Source: Pseudomonadota bacterium | GTDB taxonomy: Bacteria; Pseudomonadota; Gammaproteobacteria; Burkholderiales; Burkholderiaceae_C | DNA length: 64,000 bases | NCBI GenBank assembly: GCA_040386575.1 | Contig: JAZKFI010000036.1 | Span: forward strand, 37,716-101,715 | Direction of reading: 5' to 3' | Shown here: positions 55,125-59,491 of the stretch, piece by piece | Numbering within the stretch: the stretch's first letter is position 1 | How the letters are laid out: each line of letters starts with the position of its first letter | Notes under the pieces: generated by a model | Seen by the model: the letters and a program-made list of their open reading frames with translations, nothing else | What the model was told of the DNA's origin: nothing | Databases searched by the model: none | Program-made: the position numbers and the translations under genes

Positions 55125-56303
55125 ATGCAAGGCCCCACCCGGAAGTTCGACGTCGCCATCATCGGCGGAGGCCTGATGGGATGCAGCGCCGCCCACTTCA
55201 TCAGAACCCTGGCGCCCAATGCAAGCGTGGGGGTGATCGAACCCGACCCGACTTACGAGTTCGCATCCACCCCGCGTGCTTCCGGAGGCTGCCGCGTCCA
55301 GTTCACCTGCCCCGAGAACATCGAGCTCTCGAAGGCGAGCATCGAGTTCATCAAGGCCTTCCCGCAGCACATGGCGATAGCCGATGCGCAACCCGACGTA
55401 GGGTGGATCGAGGGCGGCTACCTGTTCGTCGTTCCACCCGAACACATCGAGGCGCTGGCAGGCAACGTGAAGCTGCAAAACGCACTCGGCTGTGAAGTCA
55501 ACCTGCTCACGCCCCAGGAGCTCAAGGCGAAATTTCCGTCGATGAACGTGGACGATCTTGGCGCAGGCGCGCACTCGCCCCGCGATGGCTGGTGCGACCC
55601 GCACAGCCTGCTGTGGGCCTTCAGGCGAAAGGCGGTATCGCAGGGCGTGGACTTCGTGAAAGGACGAGTTGTAGCAATCGATGTCGATGCCGCGAAGGTC
55701 CGGGCCTTGCGACTGGAAGATGGCTCGCAGATCGTGGCGGATACCTTCATCAATGCAGCGGGCGCATGGTCGGGTCAGGTTGCAGCGATGGCCGGCATGA
55801 ACCTGCCGATCTCGCCGATGAAGCGCTTCGAGCACTACTTCACGCCGGCATCGCCGATGGAGCGGCTGCCCTACGTGAAGGACATGGCGCGGCTGGCCTT
55901 TCGATCCGAGGGAAACGGCTTTTCCGGCGGCCTGGTGGACGGATCGACCGAACGGGGTTTCGACTTCGAGGTGGACCACGACTACTTCGAACGCGTGGTG
56001 TGGCCTGCGGTTGCGCATCGGTTCCCGCCCCTGGAGGCCGCAAAGTGCCATCGCACCTGGGCGGGCCTGTACGAAGAATGCGAGCTCGATGGCAACGCGG
56101 TGATCGGGCGCTGGAACAACGGCCTGGCCAACCTGCTGGTCGTCGCCGGCTTTTCGGGTCACGGAATGATGCATGCGCCAGCCGCGGGCCGCGGCATCGC
56201 CGAGCTGGTCGTGCACGGCTCGTACCAGACCATCGATCTCACGCGACTGGGCTATGAGCGCGTGGAGCAGAACCAGCCCTACCGTGAAACAGGAATCATC
56301 TGA
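55125..56303 (+). CDS. FAD-dependent oxidoreductase (DAO/sarcosine-oxidase-beta-like family)
   Basis: 392 aa with the dinucleotide motif DVAIIGGGLMGCSAA and a C-terminal GFSGHGMMHAPAAG. Confidence 0.8.
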   Translation: MQGPTRKFDVAIIGGGLMGCSAAHFIRTLAPNASVGVIEPDPTYEFASTPRASGGCRVQFTCPENIELSKASIEFIKAFPQHMAIADAQPDVGWIEGGYLFVVPPEHIEALAGNVKLQNALGCEVNLLTPQELKAKFPSMNVDDLGAGAHSPRDGWCDPHSLLWAFRRKAVSQGVDFVKGRVVAIDVDAAKVRALRLEDGSQIVADTFINAAGAWSGQVAAMAGMNLPISPMKRFEHYFTPASPMERLPYVKDMARLAFRSEGNGFSGGLVDGSTERGFDFEVDHDYFERVVWPAVAHRFPPLEAAKCHRTWAGLYEECELDGNAVIGRWNNGLANLLVVAGFSGHGMMHAPAAGRGIAELVVHGSYQTIDLTRLGYERVEQNQPYRETGII

Positions 56304-57676: not shown

Positions 57677-59491
57677 ATGAAAATCAGTTTGCGCGTGTTT
57701 CACGGACCCAGCGTCCATGCGCCGTTTGCGGCAGTGATTGCGCAATTCACCAGCCCCTTTGCGCATCCACTGGCGCCTTCGGTTGTCGAATCGCAGTGGC
57801 GGCTGGTCAGCGACAAGCCTTTGTGGGAAAGCTCCGCACAGCCAGATAGCGTCTCGTTTGAGCGTCTGGCTTGCCTGCTGGCCGTCAATCTCCAGCATCC
57901 GGATGAGCCAGAGGACGCGATTGTTCGCATCGAGGCGGCAACCACGGCCCGGCCCAGTTCAATCGCTCTGGGTTTTGCGGATCCCGGGGCGAGCTCCCTG
58001 GTCTTGCAGACCGCCATCGATCTGGCCGAAAAGATATTTCTGGGTGCGGCTGGCGATACGGACAGCCTGAAACGGCTGGCGCCCCGCCTGAGGCAGGTGC
58101 AGGTCGGGCTCCAGCTGGCACTCCCACACGCGCCGGTGGCTCGCACGCTGGCTCGTGTGGCGCGCCGGCGCGCGATTCCCGTGTATCCGGTGGCCGAAAA
58201 TTCGCGCATCTGGCTCTTCGGACAAGGTGCGGCCGGCGCGCACTTCTTCTCCGCAGCGGGTGAGTCTGATTCCCTGACCGGCACCATGCTGGCGAAAGAC
58301 AAGCTCTTGTCCAACCGGCTCGTGCGGCGGCTTGGATTTCCGGGTGTGACGCACACGGTTGCGTCGAGCGAGGTACAGGCGGTTGCAGCGGCGCGGCGGC
58401 TGGGCTACCCCGTTGTCCTCAAACCGATTTCCAGTGGAAAAGGCAAAGGCGTTTCTGCGTATGTGATGGACGACGCGCAAGCCGGTGCGGCGTTCGCCAA
58501 CGCAGCAGCCTTGTCCCGGCAGGGCGTCATCGTCGAGCGACATGTTGCTGGCGACGACCATCGGCTGGCCGTGTTTGGCGGCAAGCTGGCCTGGGTGGCA
58601 GCTCGCTATCCAGCCAGTGTCACCGGCGACGGCCTGCGTACAGTCGCCCAACTCATGGAGGCGGAGAACCAGCGGCGCCGGCGAGACCCCGCCGCTGCGG
58701 ATGATGGGCTGCGACCGCTGGACGCGGACGCCGACGTGATCGTGCACCTGCGCAAGCAGGGCATCTCCCTGGATAGTCTGCCTCCCGCAGGCACGGTGGT
58801 CAGGTTGCGCAGCGTCGCCAACATCGCGAAAGGCGGCTCGATTGCAGACGTCACTCACCTGGCGCATCCGGACAACATCAAAATGGCCGAGGCCATCGCC
58901 CGGAGTTTCCGCATGGATGCGCTGGGAATCGATTTCATGACCCCGGACATCAGCCGCTCGTGGCGAGAGGTGCCGTGCGCGGTGATTGAAGTAAACGGTA
59001 CGCCGGGCATCTTCTACGACTCCCGCGCGGAGAAAATCCTGCTGGCCCGGTTTCCCGCAGGCTCCGAAGGACGCATTCCAAGCGTGCTGCTGATTGATGC
59101 GCCTGCCGGAGTAGCGCATCGCGTTTGCGCCCTGCTCGCCGCAAAGGGCCTGGCCGTGGGGCAGACAAGCGGCGATGACACGTGGCTTGCCGGGCACAAG
59201 CGCTGCCAACCCGGCGATGACTTGCCGGCGCGGGTCATGGCGCTCATCTCGGACCCTGGCTGCGAGGCGCTGGTGATAGAGGCCAGCGCCGCCTCGCTGC
59301 TCGAGGCCGGCCTGCCGCTGGATAAATTCGACCTTGTGTTGGGATTTCAGGCGTGGTCGCCGCAACTGCGCTCGCTCGTGCAATCGTGCAGCGCGAAGTT
59401 CGCCGACGCCATCGCGCCCGGGGCCGATATGGGACCGCTCATAGAAGCGGTCCTGGCGCGCTATGGTCATGCGGTCCGGGGCCCTGGATAG
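57677..59491 (+). CDS. Cyanophycin-synthetase-like ATP-grasp protein with a vestigial, P-loop-less Mur-ligase-type region (CphA2-like architecture)
   Basis: 604 aa. The central ATP-grasp region (GYPVVLKPISSGKGKGV...VIVERHVAGDDHRLAVFGGKLAWVAARYPASVTGDG...RSVANIAKGGSIADVT...GIDFMTPDISRSWREV..AVIEVNGTPG) is colinear with the CphA G domain. The C-terminal 140 aa begins GRIPSVLLIDAPAGVA where CphA1 has GRIP..SVTGTNGKTT. Confidence 0.65.
   Translation: MKISLRVFHGPSVHAPFAAVIAQFTSPFAHPLAPSVVESQWRLVSDKPLWESSAQPDSVSFERLACLLAVNLQHPDEPEDAIVRIEAATTARPSSIALGFADPGASSLVLQTAIDLAEKIFLGAAGDTDSLKRLAPRLRQVQVGLQLALPHAPVARTLARVARRRAIPVYPVAENSRIWLFGQGAAGAHFFSAAGESDSLTGTMLAKDKLLSNRLVRRLGFPGVTHTVASSEVQAVAAARRLGYPVVLKPISSGKGKGVSAYVMDDAQAGAAFANAAALSRQGVIVERHVAGDDHRLAVFGGKLAWVAARYPASVTGDGLRTVAQLMEAENQRRRRDPAAADDGLRPLDADADVIVHLRKQGISLDSLPPAGTVVRLRSVANIAKGGSIADVTHLAHPDNIKMAEAIARSFRMDALGIDFMTPDISRSWREVPCAVIEVNGTPGIFYDSRAEKILLARFPAGSEGRIPSVLLIDAPAGVAHRVCALLAAKGLAVGQTSGDDTWLAGHKRCQPGDDLPARVMALISDPGCEALVIEASAASLLEAGLPLDKFDLVLGFQAWSPQLRSLVQSCSAKFADAIAPGADMGPLIEAVLARYGHAVRGPG

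Follow-up and report, generated by a model that had tools for sequence, protein, structure and literature searches.

The window analysed here, a stretch of 64,000 nucleotides from contig JAZKFI010000036.1 of a betaproteobacterium, carries at 57677-59491 on its forward strand a gene for a 604-amino-acid ATP-grasp protein that resembles a shortened cyanophycin synthetase (hereafter the ligase; its stop codon, TAG, occupies 59489-59491). Sequence comparisons make it most likely a functional member of a large, uncharacterised family of short CphA-like proteins that is mostly proteobacterial and occurs also in the Planctomycetes. Our favoured reading, which we hold with moderate confidence, is that the protein would act as an ATP-dependent amide ligase or polymerase on an aspartate-type substrate, that it represents a lineage separate from CphA2, and that the two flavoenzyme genes directly upstream are not its partners. 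An initial annotation, made from the letters and their open reading frames (ORFs), had described the gene as CphA2-like and as one of a three-gene unit with those flavoenzymes.

The ligase comprises an N domain (amino acids 1-150, 57677-58126), an ATP-grasp or G domain (151-468, 58127-59080) and a vestigial, P-loop-less form of the Mur-ligase-like M domain (469-604, 59081-59488). The limits of these parts come, respectively, from whole-chain Foldseek alignment to CphA N domains, from phmmer alignments to 7lgn, 7lgm, 7wac, 7ta5 and 7lg5 combined with residue mapping, and from the family alignment and a structural model. Pfam returned just weak, generic ATP-grasp matches for the protein, no match for the N domain alone, and for the C-terminal stump only a sub-threshold match to DUF4938 (18 bits against a cut-off of 32). 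In NCBIfam the closest models are the two for cyanophycin synthetase, TIGR02068 and NF010623, in which ligase amino acids 107-553 align with positions 120-567 of 862; the scores of 238 and 257 bits are far under the cut-offs of 850 and 877, and a full M domain is missing. Where CphA1 enzymes have the R(I/V)P....TGTNGKTT region the ligase reads GRIPSVLLIDAPAGVA, with SVLLIDAPAGVA in place of TGTNGKTT downstream of the GRIP motif, and the P-loop is absent. The N, G and M-stump architecture and the missing P-loop had both been claimed at the outset, and both are borne out, the former by the NCBIfam range, phmmer, the model and Foldseek.

An AlphaFold2 (AF2) model built on 34 family members reached a mean predicted local distance difference test (pLDDT) of 91 and a predicted template-modelling score (pTM) of 0.85. 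In the model, residues ∼1-150, ∼151-468 and ∼469-597 each form a compact part, and the M stump is modelled as a compact alpha/beta unit with a pLDDT of ∼90. In a Foldseek search of the PDB the top 15 matches were all CphA1 or CphA2 (E 1e-44 to 1e-32), with template-modelling (TM) scores of 0.6-0.74 over 596-674 columns that take in the whole chain including the N domain; GshAB followed at 1e-22, and RimK, Ddl and LysX at ∼1e-9. Because CphA1 and CphA2 rank so far above these others, the modelled fold identifies the ligase as a CphA-superfamily enzyme and not as a RimK- or Ddl-type one, an alternative that the initial annotation had left room for. The next-best curated families by sequence, N-acetylglutaminylglutamine synthetase (TIGR03103; 4e-39) and GshAB/GshF (1e-27; PDB 3LN7), resemble the ligase in the G domain, but neither has a CphA N domain or an M stump, and both are far more distant.

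Proteins of this length are numerous. A word-index search recovered 249 relatives, the best 120 of which are mostly ∼590-630 amino acids long, with a few shorter and apparently partial sequences and one of 783 amino acids. An exhaustive search of 50%-identity representatives gave 8798 matches at E<=1e-3 and 2437 at E<=1e-30, and dozens of ∼600-amino-acid clusters at this identity level align with the ligase from residue ∼3 to ∼580. Within the family alignment the M stump keeps the motifs GRIPSV, DPxCEALVI and GLPLDRxDL, and G10 and P11 of the N domain are conserved. The nearest relative, an orthologue with 86% identity, lies in Caenimonas sp. SL110 (Comamonadaceae), which agrees with the betaproteobacterial host first assigned. 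Measured against this orthologue, the ratio of non-synonymous to synonymous substitution rates (dN/dS) is 0.20 overall and 0.22, 0.14 and 0.32 for the N domain, G domain and stump, so all three parts evolve under purifying selection; five measured neighbour genes gave 0.02-0.10. An identical ligase protein was also found on an independent Logan contig. Given the family-wide conservation of length and the dN/dS of 0.20, the ∼600-amino-acid form is a conserved family trait, and both a frameshift artefact and a pseudogene can be dismissed. The ligase falls under no curated family of Pfam or NCBIfam, and a literature search for the short family under several names returned only papers on the beta-lactamase 'CphA3', none of them relevant.

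The sequence downstream of the gene bears on the same point. A hairpin at 59539-59573 has perfect arms (GGCCCGGAAA/UUUCCGGGCC) with an A-tract before and a U-tract after it (RNA fold -23.6 kcal/mol, z = -3.8), and we read it as a bidirectional intrinsic terminator that would end the transcripts of both the ligase and the convergent ssrA gene; a general terminator scan of the window did not list it. The transfer-messenger RNA (tmRNA) gene ssrA (59574-59959, reverse strand; tag ANDERFALAA; found by ARAGORN) has its 3' end 83 nt downstream of the ligase stop. A frameshifted M domain beyond the stop, considered as a possible artefact from the start, is ruled out because the hairpin and then the convergent tmRNA gene trail the stop codon directly and leave no space for it. 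We also rejected a genomic island at ssrA, there being no integrase, no break in GC content and, within the window, no second copy of the ssrA 3' end, and the ligase occupying the same position in SL110. The insertion of a small gene beside ssrA is possible: GC content at third codon positions (GC3) is 0.74 in the ligase against 0.80-0.86 in its seven neighbours.

CphA2 has been described as a cyanobacterial enzyme (PMC10273328, PMC10206079) that consists of an N domain, a G domain and an inactive M stump of ∼150 amino acids (PMC10273328). The ligase has this layout, but it probably belongs to another lineage. GcCphA2 (7TA5) and StCphA2 (8FXH/8FXI) resemble it in having N and G domains followed by a P-loop-less M stump of ∼135-150 amino acids within a total of ∼600-640, in keeping the catalytic Lys/Lys/Arg and the D/R/N of the large loop, in having no Arg at the position of CphA1 R458, and in having K at the position of CphA1 H267. 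They differ in that their G-domain identity to the ligase (∼31-36%) is no closer than that of CphA1, in that they do not group with it in distance trees, and in that D197/D212, S148/T163 and H208 are not retained in the ligase; their hosts are cyanobacteria, whereas here the host is a betaproteobacterium and no cyanophycin genes lie nearby in the window. The 7ta5 phmmer alignment covers ligase residues 107-555, and the corresponding Foldseek TM scores are 0.67/0.69 over 611 columns.

CphA1 enzymes (for example 7LGN of T. morbirosei, 7LGM of A. baylyi and 7WAC of T. erythraeum) give the best structural match and the best phmmer scores (Tatumella 205 bits, Acinetobacter 193 bits, against 170 and 167 bits for CphA2), are colinear with the ligase over the N and G domains, and have equivalents in it of K220, K261, R309, R323, N394 and G456. 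The ligase differs from them in its M domain, cut to the P-loop-less stump, and in the replacement of H267 by K, R458 by F and E215 by M. A CphA2 fragment in turn scored 232-257 bits against CphA1 and 170 bits against the ligase; by these scores CphA2 is nearer to CphA1 than either is to the family in the window. G-domain distances tell the same story (ligase to CphA2 1.22-1.35, ligase to CphA1 1.19-1.40, CphA2 to CphA2 0.54, CphA2 to CphA1 1.09-1.18). In a neighbour-joining (NJ) tree of 148 sequences and 316 G-domain columns, in which CphA2 is represented by the two PDB sequences only, both CphA2s stand beside the CphA1 group, and the ligase falls in a separate large clade among short lineages of 570-770 amino acids. 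Two full-length proteins whose M-domain P-loops are intact, P0314 (TGTSGKTT) and P0382 (TGSSGKST), are nearer to the window family than CphA1 or CphA2 are. Quartet bootstraps separated the family and its long relatives from CphA2 and CphA1 in 90-92% of replicates, and the family and the 650-amino-acid clade from CphA2 and CphA1 in 76%. No CphA2 orthologue was found among 263 family and representative sequences screened with the CphA2 fragment. Taken as phylogenetic signal, these results give moderate support to loss of the M domain independently of CphA2. Of the initial CphA2-like assignment, then, the layout and the absent P-loop stand, while membership of the CphA2 clade finds no support (NJ tree; quartets at 76-92%; primer-binding S148 and D197 not kept).

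We had also considered K255 and an SW(R/K)E motif as characters derived jointly with CphA2, and set them aside: K255 and W429 are widespread in full-length CphA1-like proteins and on that account represent ancestral states. With these two excluded, D198 and the lack of R458 are the only traits left that the ligase shares with CphA2.

Residue roles were taken from PMC9427784 and PMC10273328 and mapped onto the ligase by alignment. The core residues of the G domain are retained, both the catalytic ones (K209, K249, R296 and G444) and those of the nucleophile pocket (R310, D351, R378 and N382), contrary to the possibility, raised beforehand, that key residues might be missing. K209 and K249 are the lysines that hold the ATP phosphates; the counterpart of R296 contacts the acyl-phosphate and the C-terminal carboxylate and is essential in CphA1 and CphA2, and the counterparts of R310 and N382 bind the aspartate beta-carboxylate in TeCphA1 (PMC9427784, PMC10273328). 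The putative beta-Asp-Arg pocket of StCphA2 (D362, R389, N393) is kept as D351, R378 and N382; StCphA2 S395 corresponds to A384, a position mostly occupied by S or A across the family. The primer-binding residues as a set are not kept. GcCphA2 R292 is present as R296, but those that meet the arginine side-chain of the primer are lost: TeCphA1 E215/GcCphA2 D197 is M204, GcCphA2 S148 is V154 and StCphA2 H208 is L200. Positions 154, 200 and 204 are variable across the family, and many full-length CphA1-like proteins likewise have no acidic residue at position 204.

A further difference concerns the incoming unit. In TeCphA1, R458 binds the alpha-carboxylate of the incoming free aspartate (PMC9427784, PMC10273328); the ligase has F446 at this position, and GcCphA2 has F as well. 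Among the 148 sequences, R or K occupies the position in 14 of the 15 that have an M-domain P-loop and in 12 of the 133 that do not, a raw count that ignores kinship, and by these counts loss of the M domain accompanies loss of the free-aspartate contact. Judging by the clades of ∼580, ∼600, ∼650 and ∼720 amino acids, loss or degradation of the M domain seems to have occurred on several occasions, the R458 contact going with it on each; this hints that the incoming unit of the short forms is a different one, perhaps formed beforehand.

By analogy with CphA1 and CphA2, catalysis would then fall to the G domain alone, the M stump being without a P-loop, and for the same reason the ligase should not add arginine to side-chains. 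ATP held by K209 and K249 would phosphorylate a carboxylate, R296 and the backbone of G444 would stabilise the acyl-phosphate, and an amine would attack from a substrate seated in the large-loop pocket (R310, D351, R378, N382). The incoming unit is probably not free aspartate, since the arginine that binds its alpha-carboxylate is lost, as in CphA2; it is more likely an aspartate-type unit that is larger or already formed, and it may be added a single time or many times.

The gene contexts of relatives point, indirectly, to a tailored peptide or polymer in preference to cyanophycin recycling. The relatives at 47-68% identity that have sufficient flanking sequence come from five loci, and since two of these are nearly identical they count as four distinct contexts. 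All have a convergent gene of ∼215-230 amino acids directly after the ligase gene, often overlapping its 3' end (reverse strand; L085 3001-3693, L086 9832-10500, L002 2548-3195 and L003 11088-11741). Its product matches Formyl_trans_N (E 6e-7) and is similar to PurN, to the formylation domain of the linear gramicidin synthetase and to ArnA. It carries NIHP and HxV..IDAG stretches, which resemble the catalytic motifs of formyltransferases, and these catalytic-type motifs look intact. This formyltransferase-like gene, which a search of the window did not find (best E 0.4), may be a real partner of the family in the 47-68%-identity subclade. In other subclades a methyltransferase gene overlaps the ligase stop or lies directly downstream (five loci), and some loci combine two or three distant ligase paralogues (∼26% identity) with glycosyltransferase, sulfotransferase and type-I secretion genes. 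One such metagenome locus (L003 9262-21076) has three short CphA-like paralogues, a glycosyltransferase, two sulfotransferases, a methyltransferase and ABC/HlyD/OEP export genes, a gene set that suggests an exported, tailored product.

The flavoenzyme genes belong to a different story. DAO1 (55125-56303, 392 amino acids) and DAO2 (56303-57670, 455 amino acids), both on the forward strand, encode oxidoreductases dependent on flavin adenine dinucleotide, and Pfam DAO matches (E 3e-57 and 2e-32) uphold their assignment to that family. Their stop and start overlap as TGATG at 56301-56305, as first described, whereas the gap between the DAO2 stop (TAG) and the ligase ATG measures 6 nt (tgccgc, 57671-57676) and not 7. 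Upstream on the same strand, 46464-52955 encodes the binding protein TctC, a 2-hydroxyacid dehydrogenase, an aldehyde dehydrogenase of the alpha-ketoglutaric-semialdehyde type and the D-2-hydroxyglutarate dehydrogenase YdiJ (Pfam; the same order occurs in loci L001 and L091). The YdiJ protein (1023 aa) matches equivalog NF049975 over its full length at 1528.6 bits (cut-off 1350). A DpkA-like Ldh_2 imine reductase gene follows, with its main part at 54149-55111 on the forward strand (Pfam Ldh_2 1e-89); its product scores 333 bits to 1wtj, the delta1-piperideine-2-carboxylate reductase DpkA. The closest solved relative of DAO1 is PDB 1y56 chain B (E 6e-37), deposited as 'sarcosine oxidase' and which we take to be the L-proline dehydrogenase of Pyrococcus horikoshii. 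These seven genes look like an ordinary operon of amino- or imino-acid catabolism feeding 2-oxoglutarate. The DpkA-like reductase, the two DAO proteins, the aldehyde dehydrogenase and YdiJ are what clusters for D-lysine/pipecolate and hydroxyproline-type catabolism also contain; the window operon differs from such clusters in having no epimerase or deaminase gene.

This operon is older than its association with the ligase. When the window Ldh_2, DAO1 and DAO2 proteins were compared by tblastn with 84 loci, 27 of them ligase-family, they, and with them the trio of ligase, DAO1 and DAO2, were found only in the Caenimonas sp. SL110 locus (L001), where the eight genes of the window stand in unchanged order. 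None of the 26 other ligase-family loci has a DAO or Ldh_2 neighbour; the remaining loci gave G-domain-only matches at ∼33-39% identity, as expected of a CphA1-type gene. The orthologue in a Ramlibacter metagenome-assembled genome (MAG; 74% identity) is preceded by arabinofuranosidase, GDT1 transporter and methyltransferase genes. The Logan metagenome contigs L091 (1-9371) and L092 (2-7626) carry the 2-hydroxyacid dehydrogenase, aldehyde dehydrogenase, YdiJ, Ldh_2, DAO1 and DAO2 genes in the same order, with proteins 78-91% identical to those of the window (DAO1 84%, DAO2 79%) and with TctC also present in L091. On both, DAO2 is the last gene of the operon; unrelated genes (one with weak AbiEi_4 and DUF6088 matches) come next and a ligase is missing, so that these contigs represent the ligase-free state of the locus. 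DAO2 itself has 3754 homologues, the best 120 of them at >=67% identity, and orthologues at ∼70% identity adjoin GntR regulators, amino-acid ABC (ATP-binding cassette) transporters and TctC, with no ATP-grasp gene. From these comparisons we conclude that the ligase was appended to the 3' end of a pre-existing operon, between it and ssrA, only in the Caenimonas lineage as far as gene order indicates; its adjacency to the DAO genes is a local accident of gene order and not a conserved partnership. The three-gene unit first proposed thus fails on conservation, and effort on a pathway with two flavin oxidases can be spared.

Several other explanations need to be set against our favoured reading. 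The ligase could be the equivalent of CphA2, repolymerising beta-Asp-Arg (or beta-Asp-Lys) dipeptides alongside a full-length synthetase encoded elsewhere. The common layout, the rank of 7ta5 as second-best structural match with both chains, the conservation of R296 with D351, R378 and N382, and the F at the R458 position as in GcCphA2 all fit, and SL110 and the Ramlibacter MAG each encode a full-length CphA1-like protein of ∼880 amino acids elsewhere. The primer-binding D197, S148 and H208 are, however, replaced by residues that vary within the family, the family does not group with CphA2, the window has no cyanophycinase or dipeptidase gene, and relatives adjoin formyltransferase-like, methyltransferase, glycosyltransferase and sulfotransferase genes or their own paralogues in place of cyanophycin genes; we regard this explanation as unlikely, though worth keeping in view. 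A similarly doubtful proposal is that of a single-turnover amide ligase making a small molecule such as a dipeptide or N-acyl amino acid, perhaps N-formylated or methylated in the ancestral context. It draws on the next-best curated families, N-acetylglutaminylglutamine synthetase and GshAB, which ligate once, on the unconserved primer-binding residues and on the recurrent small tailoring neighbours (formyltransferase-like in four contexts and five loci, methyltransferase in five loci), but the whole-chain structural matches are polymerases only. For a dedicated three-gene pathway of ligase and flavoenzymes there are the 6-nt gap, the TGATG overlap, the one terminator after the ligase and the same arrangement in SL110. 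We nevertheless think it very improbable: the trio is missing from the 26 other family loci and from the contig of the Ramlibacter orthologue, L091 and L092 end the same operon with DAO1 and DAO2 and no ligase, DAO2 is a very large and highly conserved family found in catabolic transporter and regulator contexts, and the GC3 and evolutionary rate of the ligase are unlike those of its neighbours. We hold it to be next to impossible that the gene is what is left of a full-length cyanophycin synthetase in decay, or that it arose by faulty assembly. It has ∼270-300 residues fewer than CphA1 and a dN/dS above that of its neighbours, but its length and C-terminal motifs recur over dozens of 50%-identity clusters, its dN/dS is well under 1, the identical protein stands on an independent contig, and the terminator and ssrA come directly after the stop.

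Our reading of a separate lineage of amide ligases has points against it too. Its placement relative to CphA2 comes from NJ distances and quartets with two CphA2 sequences, and 24-32% of the signal favours grouping with CphA2; D198 is common to the ligase family and CphA2, as is F446 to the ligase and CphA2. The association with R458 is based on counts uncorrected for phylogeny, within a family uncharacterised as to substrate and product. The 6-nt gap and shared terminator also mean that the ligase is predicted to be co-transcribed with DAO2, an arrangement kept in SL110, and a functional link specific to this lineage is possible.

More tentatively still, and with considerable doubt, the ∼600-amino-acid proteins might be unrecognised, widespread polyamide synthetases that lost the M domain independently of CphA2, together with the free-aspartate arginine, and that assemble pre-formed units of aspartate type into a polymer or oligomer distinct from cyanophycin. 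An N-formyltransferase-like partner would ancestrally cap or prime the chain, and CphA2 would be one of several short-form offshoots. Cyanophycin synthetases attract study because the nitrogen-rich biopolymer that they make is useful, and the stripped-down layout known from CphA2 turns out to be common in Proteobacteria and present in Planctomycetes; its dozens of clusters at 50% identity contain no studied member and belong to no curated family. If other polyamides or peptides are indeed made, the known range of ATP-grasp polymerases would be widened and new targets for biopolymer engineering would become available.

The full-length CphA1-like protein of SL110 has 878 amino acids including a Mur-ligase domain and is encoded on another contig (L093 8001-10637), with a major facilitator superfamily transporter gene directly after it. 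It falls in a betaproteobacterial clade that has the P-loop TGSxGKTT and K in place of CphA1 H267. Within the window itself, a Pfam scan of ∼45 further ORFs found no cyanophycinase, isoaspartyl dipeptidase or Mur-ligase-type protein, in line with the initial statement that cyanophycinase, isoaspartyl dipeptidase and cphA1 are absent.

The upstream part of the operon is interrupted in this strain by an IS5-family insertion sequence (IS) of 1154 bp (52995-54148, reverse strand; inverted repeats), whose transposase gene (53121-54116, reverse strand) matches Pfam DDE_Tnp_1 and DUF772. The element has imperfect 16-bp terminal inverted repeats and is flanked by the target duplication TTAG (52991-52994 and 54149-54152). 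It splits the DpkA-like gene (52955-55111) after codon 13, and the same gene is uninterrupted in SL110. An in-frame GTG at 54128, in the end of the IS, could possibly restart translation of the DpkA-like protein. Given its position, the element probably disturbs transcription from the operon promoter through what is left of the DpkA-like gene, DAO1, DAO2 and the ligase. A crude sigma-70 promoter scan of 53000-60100 found none, neither a promoter of the ligase's own nor an outward one in the IS.

Elsewhere in the window, a 252-amino-acid ORF at 16973-17731 (reverse strand) joins ∼180 N-terminal residues of FHIPEP (FlhA-type) to the last ∼30 of FliP, as if a deletion had left it behind from a cluster for flagellar or type III export; a FliR-type gene (Bac_export_1) is located at 18765-19598. 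The reverse-strand gene at 5286-9011 encodes a 1241-amino-acid protein that contains nine Calx-beta repeats (E 2e-157) and is probably a large protein of the cell surface or a secreted one. A long run of ∼16 reverse-strand genes at 23641-40544 is rich in family III CoA-transferases and enoyl-CoA hydratases, together with an acyl-CoA dehydrogenase, a flavoprotein of the fumarate-reductase type and five TctC binding proteins; it has the look of an island for organic-acid catabolism in which modules were duplicated.

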